Below, in pieces: positions 3,088 to 58,251 of a DNA stretch of 58,448 bases. The notes beneath the pieces were generated by a model. That model ran no database searches, had not been told where the DNA came from, and worked only from the letters and a program-made list of their open reading frames with translations. The translations under genes and the position numbers were made by a program. The stretch is from a virus, in the IMG/VR virus record IMGVR_UViG_3300029716_000017, positions 1 through 58,448 of that record. One strand, 5' to 3'. Positions within the stretch are counted from its first letter, which is position 1; the number at the start of each line of letters is the position of its first letter.

Positions 3088-3294
3088 TTATTCATTTTCG
3101 TCAACCCATTCTACGCCACCTTTGTTACCTACATGAGTAACAATATTGGGGTATGCAGTTTTCAAATATTGCAAATCCGAACGCAATGTTCGTGTTGAGA
3201 CATTTAGTTCTTTACAAATAAAAGAAGTTGTCACAAACTTTTTCTCTTGCAATATTTTCACAATTCCCAGTTGCCTTTTATTTATATTATGCAT
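3088..3294 (-). CDS. Small HTH DNA-binding protein
   Basis: KRQLGIVKILQEKKFVTTSFICKELNVSTRTLRSDLQYL is a DeoR/HTH_11-like helix-turn-helix. Confidence 0.5.
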   Translation of the reverse strand: MHNINKRQLGIVKILQEKKFVTTSFICKELNVSTRTLRSDLQYLKTAYPNIVTHVGNKGGVEWVDENE

Positions 3295-4386
3295 TACTTA
3301 TTGTCCTCCTGTTGTATATTTAGATTTTTAAACATAGCGCACATAACATCAACCACTATGCTATTGCCAAATTGCTTATATAGTTGCGTATTACTGTTGA
3401 CTGCTGCCATTTTGTCAATATCATCATCAGATACGCCCATAAGCCGCCCACACTCTTTCGGTGTTAGCTTTCTGATACGATAGCCAACATTGTATAAATA
3501 CGAATTTCCACCAGTATTTCCAACGGGTTGAGCATTTAATGCCATAGCACAAGCATTAGAACTATACACTCTGTTTCCTTGTCTGTATTGTGAACCAAAT
3601 TCATTTTCTTTCCCAACACCACCTAACAATAAAGGCTTTTCAATTCTTACAACTTCTTGGTTTTGTGCGGTTAATGTAGGACAAGTATTGCCTTTGTCTT
3701 GCACTCTGCCTCTTCTGGTCTTGCTTTTCGGATAGCTTGCGTCGAAGCAACCACCTATTTCGCACTCAATAGAACCACCCTTTGTGGCTTGCCTGATTTT
3801 CACATTTTCAAGCAACAAATTATCTTTCTGCACTGTTGTCAGCGTATTAGACACATTATCTCGTCTAGGCTCCAACTCCGTCATATTATGTCTACTTTCT
3901 TGTATCTGTCCGCTTTCATATGCTTTCCGTATTTGCTTGCCATACTCTGTACGTTTAGGTGTTAATACTTGTGGTTCCATAACAAGATTATCTTTCTGTA
4001 CACTTGTTAAACAATTACTTGTGCCTTGCGTATTTACCTCTAATCTCTGTTCTGTCGGACTTCCAACAGTTCTATCTGACGGATTATCAGGATTTCTTCC
4101 ACGCATAGCAACTATCTGACTTTCGCACACTTTAATCTGTTGCGTACCGCCACCCTCAACCGTTGTAATGTTGGGACAAAGTGCATTTTCGTCATATACT
4201 GTGTTTGACTGGTGCTTGCCTGTGCCGTTATCCATAAATCCCAACTGTTTTGTTTCAAGAATTTTAGGCTCTTGATTACCACCTTGCATTGTACTCAATG
4301 TTGGACTACACCCCCCACACATCATAAATTCTGTTGGTGCTCTCAAATTTTGCTTCAAGAGAACCTACTACATTTACATCTGCCAT
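3294..4386 (-). pseudogene. C-terminal part of a multispecific DNA (cytosine-5) methyltransferase: TRD array plus motifs IX-X, frame-disrupted
   Basis: Motif IX (RKLTPKECGRLMG) and motif X (GNSIVV) are present, with repeated TRD-like segments (CSPTLST, CPNITTV, NCLTSV, NTLTTV, CPTLTA). The ATG at 4386 (MADVNVVGSLEAKFESTNRIYDVWG) is 1 nt out of frame with the rest at a G6 run. Confidence 0.6.
4311..4316 (-). repeat. G6 homopolymer at a frameshift point in the methyltransferase
   Basis: The plus strand reads CCCCCC. With G5 the reading would be ...NRIYDVWGCSPTLSTMQGG, which is continuous. Confidence 0.8.
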
Positions 4387-4500
4387 TACTTCAATCACTC
4401 CAATATCATTCTTGGTTCTTTATACTCTCTTGCGGTTATAGATGGAGCTGTGTCTTTGTATGTTCTTATTGCACCGCCCTCTAAACCGCTCATGCTTGTA

Positions 4501-5460
4501 TCAATACATATTTTCTGCGACAAGATTTCCGGCTTTTCTGCGTTTTGAAATTCCGTTATCGTACCTTGCTGGTATGCAGTTTGCAATTTCTCTCTGTTGT
4601 GGCTTATTGATTGTTCCGTCAATGCAAGTCTGCTCTGCTCTGCTCTGCTCTGCTCTGCTCTGCTCTGCTCTGCTCTGCTCTGCTCTGCTCTTAGAAATTG
4701 TATTTGGTAATGTGCCGTTGTCAATAAGCTGTTTTATCAGCTTGTCAGCCTTTTCATTGTTGATATAATACTTTTCATCTACACTGTCTTCCAAATAGTC
4801 CTTTAACTTCTTTTTGAGTGGTATAGGTTTTGGAAAATTATATGAATAATTTCCCAAGAATGAAAACATAAAACACCTGTTTCTGTTCTGTGCCACTCCA
4901 TAATTTTTAGCATTCAAATCTTGCCAATAATTTTTGTAACCTAAACTTTCCAAAAATTCCAACCACTTCTTGAAATCATAAATGTTTTTCTTACCATGTA
5001 CCTGTGGTACATTTTCCATGAATAATATCTGTGGCAACTCACCACCACTATCTCTGATTTCTGTTAGTATTCTTTCAACTTCCCACAAAAGCCCTGATCG
5101 TGTACCGCTACCCTTAGACATACCAGCTTGCTTCCCAGCAACAGACAGGTCCGTACACGGAAAAGAGTAAGTAAGTAAGTAAGTAAATGTTTTAGTGTCC
5201 GTAATGGCTAAATCCACAGCATGAACCTGTGTTATATCCATTGTTGAAAAATCAGTGCCATGCACAGCGTTATAACTTGCTATGGCATACTTATCAAACT
5301 CCACAACTCTGTAATGTTCAAAGTCTGCACCTATACGCCTTAATGCCATAGCCTGACTGCCATATCCAGCAAATAACTCTATAAGTCTGATAGGCTTAGT
5401 AATGCTGATAGGCTCTCGCAAATAATCAAAAATATTCATTTGTGACATTTTTATCACCAA
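4501..5460 (-). CDS. DNA (cytosine-5) methyltransferase, N-terminal catalytic part (motifs I-VIII) with an internal SSR
   Basis: Motif I ELFAGYGS, motif IV FPCTDLS, motif VI FMENVPQ and motif VIII QNRNR are present. These are followed by (SRAEQ)4 and a TRD-like segment ANCIPARYDNGISKRRKAGNLV before a TGA. Confidence 0.85.
   Translation of the reverse strand: MVIKMSQMNIFDYLREPISITKPIRLIELFAGYGSQAMALRRIGADFEHYRVVEFDKYAIASYNAVHGTDFSTMDITQVHAVDLAITDTKTFTYLLTYSFPCTDLSVAGKQAGMSKGSGTRSGLLWEVERILTEIRDSGGELPQILFMENVPQVHGKKNIYDFKKWLEFLESLGYKNYWQDLNAKNYGVAQNRNRCFMFSFLGNYSYNFPKPIPLKKKLKDYLEDSVDEKYYINNEKADKLIKQLIDNGTLPNTISKSRAEQSRAEQSRAEQSRAEQTCIDGTINKPQQREIANCIPARYDNGISKRRKAGNLVAENMY
4629..4691 (-). repeat. 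Pentanucleotide simple sequence repeat (GAGCA)x12 inside the methyltransferase ORF
   Basis: The plus strand has TGCTC x12 at 4631..4690, with partial units on both sides. Confidence 0.95.
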
Positions 5461-24480: not shown

Positions 24481-24870
24481 TCACCTACCAGTGTCTATGA
24501 GATTGAATTGACAGTTACGATATTTAGTTACTATGTGCGATTTTGGACTTGCAAACAATGGTTCTGCTGTTCTGTCGCCTGGGTACATTATAATTGTTAT
24601 CGGTTTACCTGTGCGATAATCTTCAAATGTAACTGGAATATAAAATGGTTCAACCGCTTTTAACATTGCTTGCCAAATTTTTGGTTCAAGGCCGACCCAC
24701 TTCATGTTATCCAACTTGTATAAGTCTCTGCCAATCCTTTGACCGATAGTTACATTGTTAGCATTACGGCCGGCATTAACTGTCGTTGTAATAGTATAAG
24801 TAAAGCCAACAGCGGGACATGGAAAGTCCACACCGTTGACATTTAAAAAACTTGATAATCCTTGTGCCAT
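24481..24870 (-). CDS. Distal tail protein-position gene
   Basis: The start is trimmed to MAQGLSSF, preceded by AGAGGTG. It lies directly after the tape measure. Confidence 0.45.
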   Translation of the reverse strand: MAQGLSSFLNVNGVDFPCPAVGFTYTITTTVNAGRNANNVTIGQRIGRDLYKLDNMKWVGLEPKIWQAMLKAVEPFYIPVTFEDYRTGKPITIIMYPGDRTAEPLFASPKSHIVTKYRNCQFNLIDTGR

Positions 24871-24880
24871 ATTATCACCT

Positions 24881-27800
24881 CTATGCTGTTGTAAATTGAT
24901 GACCGTTACGTGATCTACGCCTATCCGTTTCACTGACAAGGGTTCGACCATCAATATTGATAGATGTATCTTTATCTGCTGTTTCCCTTGTATTCCGGGC
25001 AATTTGGGAGAGATAAGGCGTAAGTGCGTCATCAACTGCTTGCCTAACTCCACTTGCTATACCGGCGGTAATCTGTTCGTTGTTTGCAACGACAGACTTT
25101 CCGTTGTCAAACTTACCCATTATCTCACCTTGGTTTGCACGGAACCATCCGTCTTCTGGGAATCCTCCGGTTGCATAAGTTGGCATGAAACTAAAAGTAC
25201 CAGACATCGCTTGCTTAAGTGGGTCTGATGCTTGCTTAACATTGAATTTTATTTCTTTTTGGGACATACCCATGAAAATTTTGTTTGCGGCATTTTCACC
25301 AAGTTTTTTTAAGCCCTCATCTGTCTGCGTCTTAATATTGTACTGTACACTTTTGCCAGTAAAGTTCTTTTGCAATGTATCGTTAATTGACTTAACCGCA
25401 CTACCGCTAGTTGTTGGCTTGCCGTTAACAGCGGTATTTGCATTATACTTAACTGTTTTATCTTTCCAGTACCGACTGAAAATATTGGATATGCTAGAAA
25501 GTTTTTCACCTGTAGTTGCATTTTGACCGTTTATAGCGGTTTGCGCATCATACTTAGCACTCTTGCCTTTCCATACAGATGACCACCGATTAACTATTCC
25601 GGATAAGATGCTGCTACTTGGTGTATTTTGTCCATTTGTGGCGGTTTGCGCATCGTACCTAGCATTCTTGCCTCTCCAAGTATCGGCCCATAATTTTCCT
25701 ATATTTCTTATGGTCGCTACGTTGTCTGTCTTATTATCATTTACTGACGTGTCTACGTTGTAATCAACGTTTTTCCCACCAAAAATTGAGATTGCACCGC
25801 GAACTGATTTATTCAGTTTTTTATAGTCTTTATCAGTCTTTCCATTGGTGGTCGTATCAATATTAAACTTGCTGCTTATAATTCCTGATAATCCAACTAT
25901 AGGGCTTGTTTTCATTCCGAATTTTGCAACACTGCTTAATTTGTCCGCAATTTTCTTGAGATATCCCCAAAGCGTTTTCAATTTCTCGGTAATTGAATTT
26001 AAAACAGGCTTAATAATATCCCATGCAATTTGAACTTTTGCACTTATATCCGCAATTTTTTTAACAATCCAGTTACCAATTAATTGCCGAATAACTGAAC
26101 TAATTGCTGATGCAACAGCCAATATAGGTGAAAGCACAGTTTTTATTGAATTTAATGCCGGAGAAATTTTTTCACCTATTGCATTGGCAACTTTTGAAAT
26201 AACCGAATAAACCGTACTTAACAAATTTGAGACTGTGCTTAATGTGGGTTTTAATACTGTTACAACCTTATCTGTATATGGAGACAACTTGCCCACACCA
26301 GATTTGATCTTGTTGATTATATCTACAATTAAATTCATTGGTGCAATAATATATTCAAGTGCTTTTTTTATGCCCTTGAATAATTTGGAATTGGATATTT
26401 TGCTATATGCACCTTCTCCAAATACCTTATCAATTATTGCTTGGCCTACACCTTCATATATTTGCATTGGAATCTTAGGTATTTCCTTGGCCATAGTAAT
26501 AATCAAAGAACCAAGGTTCCAAACAAGGCTTCCCCAATTGATACCACATATAAAATCCACAACTTTTTGACCAAGTTTTTGCCAGATGCCGTCTTGATTA
26601 ATAGTCTCAAAAGCACTAACTATTGTCTTACTTATTCCTATTGCAAAGTTAGATAAGGTTGCTCCTGTAAGTCCAGCGTCCCATGTGTTAAGAAATCCAG
26701 TTATTGAAGATATAAGCGATTTACCCAAGTTTTTCCAATCAAAATTGATTGCAAAAGTATTTCCAGCAGTAAGCGCTGTATTTATTGCGCCGGCAATTGT
26801 TGAACCAAGATTAGAAAACAATCTCGGAGTAATGAGGCCATTCAAGAAGTCGGCAAGTCCTTTACCAAAATTTTTTGCCTTTTTGTATACCTTATTCCAC
26901 TTAATAGATTCCATTGCCTTAGACAAACTATCACTGATATACTTGCCTAATTGGTTAAGGTTCTTGATGCTAGACTTGTAAAGTCCCTCTGTTTCTTTTA
27001 TTTGGTATTTAAGTCCATTGTTGCCACCAGCACCGCTTACACCAGTGCCTCCACCAGAACCACCACCACCGTTTGTGCCTGTGTCTTTATCCGGTTCGAC
27101 CACGTTCAACTCATCAATACCAAGAAGATGTGTTTTTAAATCTTTGGCCGCTTTAGCGGCTTTTTTAGTTCCGCTTGCCATATCATCAGCAGCACCGGCA
27201 GCACCTTCAAAATCATCAGATATAGAACCCTTTTGTATCTCTAGTTTCCATCCAAAAATTGCACCAAGGGCATTTACAACTTTTTCGGAAAAAGTGTAAA
27301 CCGCCGATAAAGCCTTATTAAGAGCCTGTACAAGCGGTTTTAACATATTGACAAATGCATTACCCCATACGCCAGCAACTGCCTTTATTTGTTCCTGTAA
27401 GATACGTAACTGGTTAGCCCATGTCTGGCTAGTACGTGCAAAATCCCCTTGTACATTCTTGGTGTTATCCATGACATACTGGTATCTCAGCATCGTTTTT
27501 TCAAGCTGAGTCATAGAGGATATGTTGGCATCAAGACCTTTTTTCATTGCATACTCTTTGAGGGTTGCGTTAGTAAGGTCAATACCAAAAGCTCGCATAG
27601 GCTCTGTCTCGCCAGTAAAGATTGACCATAATTTACGAGAACTTTCTTCCTGTGAGATATTATAGAAAGAGGCTAAGTCTGCCGATAATGCAGTAAGCTG
27701 TATTGACATATCAGACATATCTTTAACAGGCGCACCCATAGCAAGTCCCATAGCCTGGAATCTGCCAGCTGTTTGCTTTGCAGATAATTCTGACATTCCA

Positions 27801-28885
27801 TACATCTTTATTGATGTTTTGGAGAATTGCTCCAATTTGTCTGTGTATTGACCGAACGTATTAACAACGACATTCTGCACTTCAGTAAGATCAGATGAAA
27901 TGTCTATGGCTTTTTTGAATCCACTTAATACTCTTTGTGCTGCCCAAAATGTTGCATACAGTTTTCCAACTGCTGAAGCAAGACTCCATATATGTTTTTT
28001 AGCGCTTTTAGCACTGCTGCCCATACCGGAAAAACTGTTTTGTATACCTCTGCTCGCACTTGCTGTCCTACTTCCTTGTGCTGCCAGATTTGCAAGTGCA
28101 TGAGTCATTTGTATTACATTCTGTGATACTTGTGGCGCTGTAGCCATAACTTGCATAAACTTCTTAAGTTCTGCTGCAAGTGCCCCCAGTCCACCTGCTG
28201 TTTGTGTGGCTTTTACGCCCACTGATGCAAGATTACCAAGTGCAGTGGTCATCTGTATTGTTCCAGCGGATAATTGTGGTGCAAGCGCCATGGTATTAAA
28301 CAGATTGCGAAGCGTAACGGACAACTGTGGCAATGCTGCTGATACGATACTTGCTTTTTGCCCAGAATTTGCAAGTCTACCAACTGCATTGGTGAGCTGT
28401 ATTACATTTGTGCTAACGTTCTGTGCACCCTGTAACGTGCTAGATAAGCCTACAATTGCATTTCCAAGTTGGCCTATAGCATTTATATTCATGCCGTTAA
28501 TGTTCGAATTAGACAGCCTTGTAATGGAATTAATGAAGTTCGTAAGGCCCTTGTTGTTGAACTGCATGTTTCCTAATACTGATATACTGGAGGCAAGTGG
28601 GCTTATGCTATTTGCAACCGCTGTAAGTTTTGCGCTGTTGATGTTTTCAAATTGCTTTATACCCTTGGCAGCTCTGTTAAAATCAGGCATTTTTACATTT
28701 TTTATTGCATTCATGCCCTGTGCAAGCTGGTTCATGCCCTGTGCAAACTTGGCTATACCATTACTATCAATTCCTTGCAATGTCTTAGACAGTGTGCCGA
28801 GCTTATTTGACAGTTTATCTACTGCATTAACTGCTTGAGTTGCACTTGCATGTATTTTAACTTCAAGATTATCTACTGTTGCCAT
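24881..28885 (-). CDS. Tail tape measure protein
   Basis: 1334 aa, helical and low-complexity, with a Gly-rich tract (GGGGSGGGTGVSGAGG) and tandem repeats of about 37 aa. It sits in the position after the chaperones. Confidence 0.85.
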   Translation of the reverse strand: MATVDNLEVKIHASATQAVNAVDKLSNKLGTLSKTLQGIDSNGIAKFAQGMNQLAQGMNAIKNVKMPDFNRAAKGIKQFENINSAKLTAVANSISPLASSISVLGNMQFNNKGLTNFINSITRLSNSNINGMNINAIGQLGNAIVGLSSTLQGAQNVSTNVIQLTNAVGRLANSGQKASIVSAALPQLSVTLRNLFNTMALAPQLSAGTIQMTTALGNLASVGVKATQTAGGLGALAAELKKFMQVMATAPQVSQNVIQMTHALANLAAQGSRTASASRGIQNSFSGMGSSAKSAKKHIWSLASAVGKLYATFWAAQRVLSGFKKAIDISSDLTEVQNVVVNTFGQYTDKLEQFSKTSIKMYGMSELSAKQTAGRFQAMGLAMGAPVKDMSDMSIQLTALSADLASFYNISQEESSRKLWSIFTGETEPMRAFGIDLTNATLKEYAMKKGLDANISSMTQLEKTMLRYQYVMDNTKNVQGDFARTSQTWANQLRILQEQIKAVAGVWGNAFVNMLKPLVQALNKALSAVYTFSEKVVNALGAIFGWKLEIQKGSISDDFEGAAGAADDMASGTKKAAKAAKDLKTHLLGIDELNVVEPDKDTGTNGGGGSGGGTGVSGAGGNNGLKYQIKETEGLYKSSIKNLNQLGKYISDSLSKAMESIKWNKVYKKAKNFGKGLADFLNGLITPRLFSNLGSTIAGAINTALTAGNTFAINFDWKNLGKSLISSITGFLNTWDAGLTGATLSNFAIGISKTIVSAFETINQDGIWQKLGQKVVDFICGINWGSLVWNLGSLIITMAKEIPKIPMQIYEGVGQAIIDKVFGEGAYSKISNSKLFKGIKKALEYIIAPMNLIVDIINKIKSGVGKLSPYTDKVVTVLKPTLSTVSNLLSTVYSVISKVANAIGEKISPALNSIKTVLSPILAVASAISSVIRQLIGNWIVKKIADISAKVQIAWDIIKPVLNSITEKLKTLWGYLKKIADKLSSVAKFGMKTSPIVGLSGIISSKFNIDTTTNGKTDKDYKKLNKSVRGAISIFGGKNVDYNVDTSVNDNKTDNVATIRNIGKLWADTWRGKNARYDAQTATNGQNTPSSSILSGIVNRWSSVWKGKSAKYDAQTAINGQNATTGEKLSSISNIFSRYWKDKTVKYNANTAVNGKPTTSGSAVKSINDTLQKNFTGKSVQYNIKTQTDEGLKKLGENAANKIFMGMSQKEIKFNVKQASDPLKQAMSGTFSFMPTYATGGFPEDGWFRANQGEIMGKFDNGKSVVANNEQITAGIASGVRQAVDDALTPYLSQIARNTRETADKDTSINIDGRTLVSETDRRRSRNGHQFTTA

Positions 28886-44669: not shown

Positions 44670-44743
44670 TGGCAGAGATGGGATTTGAACCCATGACCTC
44701 TAGCTTATGAGGCTAGCGAGCTGCCAGACTGCTCTACTCCGCG
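44670..44743 (-). tRNA. tRNA-Met (anticodon CAT), initiator-like acceptor and D-stem features
   Basis: Hand-folded: CGCGGAG TA GAGC AGTCTGGC AGCTC G CTAGC CTCATAA GCTAG AGGTC ATGGG TTCAAAT CCCAT CTCTGCC A. No CCA is encoded. Confidence 0.85.
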
Positions 44744-44981
44744 TCATTATACATACGGCATACTATATAGCCGCATGCCGGGGCTTGTGATTATTTACTC
44801 TGGGAGGAGTATTCGACCGCCTATACGGCTACAGTTGGCATTCTGTAGGCTGATTTTCGCAAAACACTCACCGGATCTGGTGACGGTCCTTTATTCAGCA
44901 TTCCGCTAGTGAGTGAAAGGAGCACAAATGAAACAAACATTTGTCCGGTCAAGGTAAAAGAATTTGAAAACCTTAACCGCA

Positions 44982-45054
44982 TGAACGATATGGGACTCGA
45001 ACCCATGGCCCATAGATTAAAAGTCTATTGCTCTCCCAACTGAGCTAATCATTC
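44982..45054 (-). tRNA. tRNA-Lys (anticodon TTT)
   Basis: Hand-folded: GAATGAT TA GCTC AGTTGGG AGAGC A ATAGA CTTTTAA TCTAT GGGCC ATGGG TTCGAGT CCCAT ATCGTTC A. Confidence 0.9.
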
Positions 45055-45149
45055 ACATTCGCCTTGTATGGTCTCAAGGCTCCCATGGTTAGTCATGGTG
45101 GACTGTATAGGTGGAAAGGCTACTTGCGACAACTGCCTATACTCAGTAG

Positions 45150-45221
45150 CGGGGCTAGTGGGATTTGAACCCACGGATGCAGGAGTCAAAGTCCTGTGCC
45201 TTACCACTTGGCGATAACCCT
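45150..45221 (-). tRNA. tRNA-Gln (anticodon TTG)
   Basis: Hand-folded: AGGGTTA TC GCC AAGTGGTAA GGC A CAGGA CTTTGAC TCCTG CATCC GTGGG TTCAAAT CCCAC TAGCCCC G. There is a 1-72 A/C mismatch. Confidence 0.85.
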
Positions 45222-56842: not shown

Positions 56843-58204
56843 CTAAAAGTTTTTTAACTGAATTTCTATATCGTCCTTGCCTACAATCACTTTATCAATT
56901 ATAGTTTTGAGTATAGAGTTTTTTTGAGACTTGCTGATACCATCCCAGATGTCGGCAAGTTTTTTTATATTCTCATAGACAAATTCTTTTTTCTGCTCAT
57001 GCTGGCCATTTTTTCTTTCAGTTGAAATCTTTTCGGTAGTCTCTCTGATCTCAGTCTCCAAAGTCTTAATCATATCCAAAACCATGTCGTTTCCCTCTGC
57101 ATACAGGGTGTATAACCGTTTTAGCTTTGCTTTTTGTTTTTCAAGCTGGTTAGTCAGTATTTGCAACTTTGTTTCTTTTGCCTTTGGCTTGTATTGTGAT
57201 AGATTTATTGAGATGTCAAGTATTTCATGCTCAAATGCTTTTTCAATATCGCTTGCCCATGCTCCGGGGTTGTCGCAATCTGCATTGTAGTTCGGCAAGT
57301 AGTCCAAGTATTTGTCGTGTGAGCAACAATATATCTTGTGAATCCCCATGCCGGTTATCTTCTGGTATCGCATCTTGCAACCACAGGTTTTGCAATAACA
57401 CAAACCTGTAAGCAAATGTGGCTCGGTAAAACTGTATACATGTTGTTTACGTCTACTTTTTCTCAACTCCTGAGCAAGATAAAATTTGTCACGCTCAAAT
57501 ATCGGCTCATGCAATCCTTTATATGTGCCGCCCTTGTATGGGATATAACCGATATTAACAACCCCTGTGAGGATATTTCTCACAACAAATTCACTCTTAT
57601 AGCCAAGTAGTCTCTGAATTTTTACGTCGGACATACCGTCAATAAACAAATCCATAGCTCTATTAGCCTGTTCGGCACGTTCTGGAATCGGTACAAGATA
57701 GCCAAGGTTTTTATCATATCGGTAACAGTATGGTGTATTGCCGCCGCCCATCCAGTAGCCATTTTTAACTCTCTCCAGCATACCGCCGCGCATTCTCAGC
57801 AACATTGTGTTTCTATCGTATTCGGCAACTGCCGCCATAATATGTGTTTGAAACTTGTCTTGCGGTGTTTCATACCTGGCAAAATCGTGTACGCTATTAA
57901 CTCTGACACCTTTCGGTGTAAAGAGTTTTTCAATCATGTATAATGCATCTACTGAATCCCTTGCTAGCCTGTCCAGCTTATATACTACTATGTTGTTTAT
58001 TTTCGATATGTCCGATATAAGCCGTTGCAGTTCAACACGCTTGCTCATGTCCATCCCAGATAGTCCAGCATCAATATACCAATCAGTGATTAGCATTTCA
58101 TTTTTCTTACAATATTCTTCGATATCTCTTTTTTGACTTTCAAGGCCGTAACCCTCTTCAACCTGTCTTTCTGTTGACACTCTTATATATGCCACACATT
58201 CCAT
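56843..58204 (-). CDS. Large serine recombinase (integrase)
   Basis: The N-terminal resolvase domain is MECVAYIRVSTERQ...YKLDRLARD, followed by a recombinase domain, a Cys-rich zinc-ribbon region (CYCKTCGC...CC) and a coiled-coil. AGGAGG lies 9 nt before the ATG. Confidence 0.9.
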   Translation of the reverse strand: MECVAYIRVSTERQVEEGYGLESQKRDIEEYCKKNEMLITDWYIDAGLSGMDMSKRVELQRLISDISKINNIVVYKLDRLARDSVDALYMIEKLFTPKGVRVNSVHDFARYETPQDKFQTHIMAAVAEYDRNTMLLRMRGGMLERVKNGYWMGGGNTPYCYRYDKNLGYLVPIPERAEQANRAMDLFIDGMSDVKIQRLLGYKSEFVVRNILTGVVNIGYIPYKGGTYKGLHEPIFERDKFYLAQELRKSRRKQHVYSFTEPHLLTGLCYCKTCGCKMRYQKITGMGIHKIYCCSHDKYLDYLPNYNADCDNPGAWASDIEKAFEHEILDISINLSQYKPKAKETKLQILTNQLEKQKAKLKRLYTLYAEGNDMVLDMIKTLETEIRETTEKISTERKNGQHEQKKEFVYENIKKLADIWDGISKSQKNSILKTIIDKVIVGKDDIEIQLKNF

Positions 58205-58231
58205 TTCTATTATCCTCCTACGTAAAATGTG

Positions 58232-58251
58232 CCGCATATACACTACATTCT
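58232..58251. repeat. Right arm of the perfect 20-bp inverted repeat flanking the integrase gene
   Basis: CCGCATATACACTACATTCT. It is embedded in a local palindrome at 58226..58261. Confidence 0.95.

Follow-up and report, generated by a model that had tools for sequence, protein, structure and literature searches.

Bacterial pathogens are known to carry phase-variable methyltransferases, and in the known phase-variable mod genes a repeat switches one open reading frame (ORF) ON or OFF. Silencing is not the only outcome, since in the Type I system NgoAV a poly-G tract in hsdS reportedly gives rise to a truncated specificity subunit and an altered specificity. Among phages, poly-G tracts occur in the receptor-binding genes of Campylobacter phages, and Trautner and co-workers are said to have described multispecific C5 methyltransferases in the Bacillus phages SPR, phi3T, rho11s, and H2.

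Intragenic simple sequence repeats (SSRs) with a non-triplet unit, at which slipped-strand mispairing shifts the reading frame and whose unit number is polymorphic among strains, have been documented in Type III mod genes (tetra- and pentanucleotide units) and in the Type I genes hsdS and hsdM (PMC7383803, PMC4417156). M.AquI and M.EcoHK31I are natural two-subunit C5 methyltransferases; M.SssI, when broken in the proximal variable region, yields fragments that complement each other, and fragments of M.BspRI also complement (PMC3404938). Phage contingency loci, first described in a 2025 preprint by Gomez, Barrick, and Waters, are short homopolymers of at least 6 nt in T-even and other phages (PMC12633550). 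The literature found thus concerned phase-variable Type I and Type III methyltransferases and phage homopolymer contingency loci. In a search with thin coverage of subscription journals, such that an earlier description is possible, no report was found of a phage-borne phase-variable C5 or multispecific methyltransferase, of phage C5 methyltransferases switched by tetra- or pentanucleotide repeats, or of alternative target recognition (TRD) modules in overlapping frames.

The DNA analyzed here, referred to as the window, is a viral stretch of 58,448 nucleotides (IMG/VR record IMGVR_UViG_3300029716_000017). It is the genome of a temperate siphophage, with genes for a serine integrase, large terminase, portal, tape-measure protein, and DnaD-like replication protein; the temperate assignment follows from the large serine recombinase/integrase at 56843-58243 (PHROG 95, E-value 4e-98). 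Some related contigs are 125-170 kb long, consistent with integrated prophages. Three tRNA genes (Met-CAT, Lys-TTT, and Gln-TTG) are clustered on the minus strand at 44670-45221. A 190-aa ORF at 24481-25053 shares about 170 nt with the beginning of the 1334-aa tape-measure gene (24881-28885), which could reflect either an arrangement of the tail-assembly-chaperone type or start-site ambiguity.

Inspection of the minus strand reveals an ORF at 4501-5460 that contains the C5-methyltransferase motifs I, IV, VI, and VIII in order. The ORF matches PF00145 with an E-value of 1.8e-58 (Pfam) and the solved structures M.HhaI and 4dkj (“Cytosine-specific methyltransferase”) at 1e-30 to 1e-35. No exact protein match to it is on record. 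The longest form of the ORF opens at a TTG at 5460, but translation probably begins at the ATG at 5448, and the coding region from this ATG to the TGA at 4501-4503 (4501..5448, minus strand) is termed alpha. It comprises motif I (FAGYGSQ, 5353-5373), motif IV (SFPCTDLS, 5143-5166), motif VI (MENVPQ, 5002-5019), and motif VIII (QNRNRCF, 4870-4890), followed by a linker, a repeat tract (SSR1), and a TRD module designated A'. A second, perfect repeat, (TTAC)5 on the minus strand at 5166-5186 and (AGTA)5.2 on the plus strand, encodes TYLLTYS just before motif IV; it was considered as a switch and rejected, because its unit number is constant in relatives and only substitutions occur.

The original prediction had placed 12 units of TGCTC, translated as (SRAEQ)4, at 4629-4691, between motif VIII and the target-recognition region. 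Both the repeat and its site were confirmed. TRF returned a period of 5, 12.6 copies, 100% matches, and a score of 126 across 4629-4691, partial units included. On the coding (minus) strand, the tract consists of 12 exact GAGCA units running from 4690 to 4631, encodes the peptide SRAEQ four times, and is situated 180 nt downstream of motif VIII in the PF00145 ORF. The longest period-5 run in the window was 63 nt, compared with a maximum of 17 nt in 100 shuffles, and it is on this difference and on the TRF score that SSR1 is taken to be real and non-random.

As the unit length of SSR1 is not a multiple of three, the number of units sets the reading frame of the sequence that follows, and in-silico editing of the tract reproduced exactly the outcomes that had been proposed for 12, 13 or 10, and 11 or 14 units. 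With 12, 9, or 15 units (state X, the assembled state), alpha ends in ...AENMY at the TGA at 4501. With 13, 10, or 7 units (state Y), it ends in ...EPRMILE at a TGA at 4395. With 11, 14, or 8 units (state Z), it ends in ...ADLH at a TGA at 4619..4621. None of the SSR1 unit numbers yielded a single full-length ORF in the window. Recoding of the TGA at 4395 was rejected as an explanation, since several stops of all kinds occur further on in that frame.

A three-frame reading of the DNA downstream of SSR1 revealed an ordered series of modules distributed over two frames. In frame X, the catalytic N-terminal half and SSR1 are followed by TRD-A' at 4504..4629 (minus strand; NCIPARYDNGIS, TCIDGTINKPQQREIANCIPARYDNGISKRRKAGNLVAENMY), and then by the stop; this TRD type is also found in-frame within single-ORF homologues such as P0019, P0045, and P0094. 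In frame Y (4395..4628, minus strand), the DNA of TRD-A' is translated in the +1 frame and serves as a linker, beyond which lies TRD-K (APSITAREYKEP, GGAIRTYKDTAPSITAREYKEPRMILE) and the TGA at 4395-4397. The reading then returns to frame X for the first half of TRD-D (STNRIYDVWG), up to a run of six G residues, and passes again to frame Y for the remainder of TRD-D, for TRD-E, F, G, H, and J, and for motifs IX and X. In total, eight TRD-like cores (A', K, D, E, F, G, H, and J) extend from 4581 to 3507, and the gene as assembled in the window is in four pieces.

The repeat differs in several respects from those of the mod and hsd genes, with which it shares a non-triplet unit within a coding sequence. 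Those genes are chromosomal, encode N6-adenine methyltransferases, carry the repeat near the 5' end, and are switched ON or OFF. By contrast, the window encodes a phage-borne, Type II-like orphan C5-cytosine enzyme in which the repeat separates the catalytic core from the TRDs and the three frames give three defined products. NgoAV is reportedly similar in that an SSR frameshift alters the specificity part and does not merely silence the gene; the enzyme class is different, however, and the single truncation reported for NgoAV is replaced here by alternative TRDs in overlapping frames.

The modules that no form of alpha includes are encoded by a second region, termed beta (3294..4398, minus strand), which carries TRD-D, E, F, G, H, and J, motif IX (RKLTPKECGRLMG, 3435-3473), and motif X (QFGNSIVV, 3351-3374). 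Motifs IX and X are thus located in a different ORF and frame from motifs I-VIII. The putative start region of beta (4384..4401, minus strand) contains a GGAG at 4398-4401, a GTG at 4396-4398 that overlaps the frame-Y TGA as GTGA, and an ATG at 4384-4386 located 11 nt after the GGAG. This start is less canonical than that of most relatives, in which the sequence is mostly GGAGTRATTGA-ATG, a Shine-Dalgarno (SD) motif followed after 7 nt by an ATG that opens an ORF with the remaining TRDs and motifs IX-X. In these relatives the frame-Y stop of alpha falls 6-9 nt past the ATG.

As assembled, beta is itself divided into 4306-4398 and 3294-4358. The break occurs at the G6 tract (C6 on the plus strand) at 4311..4316 in TRD-D, between RIYDVWG and CSPTL, which varies from G3 to G9 in relatives. 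In-silico translation from the GTG at 4398 gave a product truncated at 30 aa with G6, whereas G5 or G8 gave 367-368 aa reaching motif X, such that deletion of one G or addition of two restored beta. The tract is the only plus-strand C run of at least 6 nt in the 58 kb of the window, and one of three G/C runs this long when both strands are considered. GGG accounts for 55 of the 729 glycine codons elsewhere in the window, and GGGGGG for none of the 48 other Gly-Gly pairs. With alpha in state X and beta switched off by the G6 tract, the assembled genotype probably yields no complete enzyme.

Additional poly-G tracts were seen in other TRD modules. One, in a module reading EKVLGG/ICPTL, varies from G7 to G9 among relatives (at about 5085-5100 in L001), and a further one lies in the module ECKIGG/VADLSFP of L086, at about 5500. 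Their presence suggests that several modules may be gated individually, each by its own poly-G.

The single continuous polypeptide that is usual for C5 methyltransferases was not found in the window, and the two-ORF organization into alpha and beta was shared by 61 of 63 relatives. The layout corresponds to that of M.AquI and M.EcoHK31I, in which motifs I-VIII and a portion of the variable region belong to alpha, the remainder of that region and motifs IX-X belong to beta, and the ORFs abut or overlap (PMC3404938). In the window, likewise, motifs I-VIII and the proximal variable region adjoin an ORF with the distal variable region and motifs IX-X. The two described enzymes are monospecific, chromosomal, and lack a repeat, whereas joint activity of alpha and beta in the phage is a prediction from sequence.

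The multispecific Bacillus phage enzymes represent the second close layout, being reportedly phage-borne with a single core and several tandem TRDs between motifs VIII and IX. The window likewise holds a phage-encoded enzyme with an enlarged variable region of several tandem TRD modules, and the reconstructed protein is 27.5-27.8% identical to the H2 and rho11s enzymes over 86-87% of the length. The Bacillus phage enzymes are said to be single polypeptides and have no reported SSR; here there are about eight TRD-like cores, two ORFs, and mutable tracts.

To place the locus among related phages, the N-terminal half of the protein (248 aa) was used as a query against IMG/VR, which returned 440 relatives. 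Among the best 80 of these 440 (87-92% identical), 67 had a repeat at the same linker site, after LIDNGTLP, comprising 46 with (GACA)n, of 2 to >19 units, and 21 with (GAGCA)n, of 2 to 13 units. Scans for exact flanks extended the set by 28 IMG/VR contigs, which have (GAGCA)2-12, and by 65 contigs from human-gut metagenomes, which have (GAGCA)2-15. Overall, a tract of (GAGCA)n, (GACA)n, or poly-G occupies this linker in more than 170 related contigs of human-gut phages, with 1 to >23 units; the ranges at the site are (GAGCA)1-15, (GACA)1-23+, and poly-G11. Homologues only 67-73% identical retain a mutable tract there, namely (GAGCA)5 in L085, (GAGCA)3 in L086, (GACA)~20 in L093, and G11 in L090. 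That three repeat chemistries occupy one position argues that mutability itself is under selection at the linker.

In a scan of species-representative genomes, relatives were mostly found in Lachnospiraceae and Roseburia metagenome-assembled genomes. The closest relative, L055 (58,438 bp), has every junction and the G6 in common with the window but has 8 units in place of 12. The exact left flank of the window had no match in the metagenome contigs, and the exact lineage was otherwise represented only by L055; the sole match from megablast against GenBank phages was one of 130 nt to Dulem virus 39. The Streptococcus phages Javan179 (L206) and Javan129 (L207), prophages from cultured strains of Streptococcus equi and S. 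dysgalactiae, have homologous alpha-like and beta-like ORFs that are annotated as a pair of genes and lack a repeat, and these prophages could serve as tractable models for split-enzyme activity.

Constancy of unit number among relatives had been named beforehand as evidence against a switch, and the opposite was observed. In pairs of contigs selected for at least 98.5% identity in the flanks of the tract (700 nt upstream, 220 nt downstream), most of which were 100% identical there, tract length differed in 35 of 42. Five contigs with 100% identical flanks carried tracts of 33 (L033), 48 (L034), 43 (L046), 8 (L067), and 38 nt (L069). The linker tract is thus hypermutable and polymorphic among near-identical relatives, although differences in length between contigs could have built up over longer periods than switching within a population would take.

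About 20 contigs begin or end within the tract, and poly-G length calls can be error-prone, as would be expected if low-complexity sequence had misled assembly or sequencing and the repeat were an artefact. The tract nevertheless recurs with consistent flanks across independent assemblies and collections, in more than 170 contigs, and in the window its 60 nt are bordered by unique sequence on both sides, leaving the probability of an artefact close to nil. Nine contigs ending in the tract were recognized by the automated census, and L040 and L065 were added upon inspection of the sequences; the contigs that start or stop inside the linker repeat include L004, L014, L019, L030, L040, L048, L059, L065, L071, L074, L075, and L081, as well as several of L141-L205. 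Several of these contigs break at the same 67 nt of pure repeat. Because contigs break there, true tracts probably often exceed the k-mer of the assembler in length and are hence undercounted. With regard to reversible switching within a clonal population, such breaks are at most suggestive.

The tract might alternatively act mainly as a recombination or deletion junction for TRD shuffling, or as an in-frame linker of variable length, with no frame switch. TRD modules are indeed mosaic between phages, and in the single-ORF homologues P0015 (SRAEQ/RLEV) and P0032/P0033 (DRQTDRQTD/NPSDRT) the repeat is joined to internal microhomologies with deletion of the intervening TRDs, from which it follows that the repeat may also mediate deletions. 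As the principal role this is highly improbable, since unit numbers are not limited to multiples of three, all three frames are populated, and tract length changes while the 920 nt of flank stay identical.

The consequences of each frame were examined at 63 loci. In 63 of 63 loci, TRD-A was closed by the frame-X stop, 120-147 nt beyond the repeat, and the frame-Z stop was located at +8 nt, likewise in 63 of 63. The frame-Y (+1) stop was located at 223-259 nt, past the linker and a second TRD, with the exception of L072 and L076, in which frame Y runs to the end of the gene. All three states occurred naturally, with X, Y, and Z represented by 23, 29, and 11 loci in the IMG/VR and genome set and by 23, 14, and 14 in the metagenome set, tallies that overstate the number of independent observations owing to kinship among the relatives. 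Beta was intact from its SD-ATG in 20 of 63 loci and was broken at a poly-G in the remainder.

The entropy at each codon position was determined for 49 distinct sequences. In the first 120 nt after the repeat (nt 0-120), values of 0.33/0.29/0.59 were obtained, the peak falling on the third position of frame X, whereas at nt 135-225 the values were 1.04/0.53/0.56 and the peak fell on the third position of frame Y. Adjoining modules are therefore under purifying selection in different frames, TRD-A in frame X and the next TRD in frame Y. Since TRD modules recombine between phages, part of the TRD-A signal could stem from genomes that use TRD-A in a single ORF. The openness of frame Y across TRD-A was assessed by resampling the synonymous codons of each TRD-A peptide with the codon usage of the window. 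Frame Y was open in 62 of 63 distinct variants, a count also inflated by kinship, compared with an expected mean of 3.6% and a maximum of 9.5%, which argues that the TRD-A DNA is built for reading in both frames.

These data bear directly on whether the locus is merely decaying, with a methyltransferase that no longer works in this lineage and with neutral drift of the repeat and the poly-G tracts. The four pieces of the assembled gene could be read in this way, as could the single ORF found in only 1 of ~68 complete relatives. Decay is very unlikely, however, when the modules lack internal in-frame stops, codon periodicity is evident in both frames, frame Y is kept open against the 3.6% expectation, the SD-ATG of beta is conserved, and three different repeat types are found at one site. 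The frame junctions are also preserved down to 70-82% identity; that of the window is kept in L055 and in the 82%-identical L083.

A more substantial alternative is a plain ON/OFF switch, in which only a continuous or Y-coupled enzyme is active, states X and Z are both OFF, and TRD-A is a relic. Known phase-variable mod genes behave in this manner, and fused single-ORF homologues are common in other lineages. Within the family, L076 is fused, and full-length ORFs would result from a single tract change in L072 (in unit number) and L090 (in G number). It may even be that the alpha-beta complex is inactive and that only these rare fused forms (L076, and L072 and L090 after tract change) work. 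A plain switch is nonetheless unlikely, as it does not account for purifying selection on TRD-A in frame X in the repeat-bearing family, for a frame-X stop in 63 of 63 loci, or for a state X as common as state Y, and it leaves the maintenance of an open frame Y unexplained. In addition, frame Y ends ahead of motifs IX-X in 61 of 63 loci, so a split enzyme would be needed in any case. The original prediction of a phase-variable phage methyltransferase accordingly stands insofar as the gene contains a hypermutable, frame-shifting intragenic SSR. Its simple ON/OFF component, the switching of one ORF, was not upheld, given the alpha/beta split in 61 of 63 relatives, the three frames with conserved and distinct outcomes, two of which encode selected alternative TRDs, and the separate poly-G gate of beta.

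The locus is thus best explained, with fairly good confidence, as a split, M.AquI-like, multi-TRD phage C5 methyltransferase whose composition would be set by slipped-strand mutation at a contingency locus, the phage being temperate and of a Lachnospiraceae type from the gut. Slipped-strand mispairing at (GAGCA)12 would change the unit number and thereby move alpha, with motifs I-VIII, among three frames. In state X, alpha would be fused to TRD-A' and stop; in state Y, the same DNA would serve as a linker, and alpha would gain TRD-K and terminate on top of the beta start; in state Z, alpha would carry no TRD and stop within four codons. Beta, with six more TRD-like modules and motifs IX-X, would be translated separately, as in M.AquI, and would be gated on or off by slippage at its poly-G, the G6 of the window corresponding to the off state. 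Alpha and beta would presumably assemble into an active enzyme, the TRDs would differ in specificity, and switching would be fast within a population. The locus would then probably vary both whether the phage methylates and which targets it methylates. The presumed benefit is a bet-hedge between hosts whose restriction is blocked by methylation and hosts whose restriction is triggered by it.

A stronger form of this model can be put forward only tentatively, as somewhat more apt to be wrong than right. In it, the three-frame repeat switch and independent poly-G gates in beta would together act as a combinatorial specificity selector that provides several methylation repertoires per phage population, a design conserved across hundreds of phages of human-gut Lachnospiraceae.

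The proposed switch has features in common with phage contingency loci and with the poly-G tracts of Campylobacter phages, namely hypermutable repeats within ORFs, reversible frameshifts, and bet-hedging against host defence. The described phage contingency loci lack tetra- or pentanucleotide arrays, a switch of methyltransferase specificity, and a gut-phage family (PMC12633550). The locus would extend both phase-variable methyltransferases and phage contingency loci, in that long tetra- or pentanucleotide arrays would here switch an anti-restriction methyltransferase of a phage. The combination of a split enzyme, TRDs in overlapping frames, and secondary poly-G gates points to variation of specificity over on/off control, and, if true, alternative TRDs in overlapping reading frames would constitute a new way to switch DNA-recognition specificity. 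Annotation will mistake genes of this kind for pseudogenes or fragments, and assemblies will have contig breaks in them.

The switch is widespread in the temperate phages of the human gut. It could explain how these phages hedge between hosts with methylation-sensitive and hosts with methylation-dependent restriction, and in lysogens it could render the epigenetic state of the host heterogeneous.
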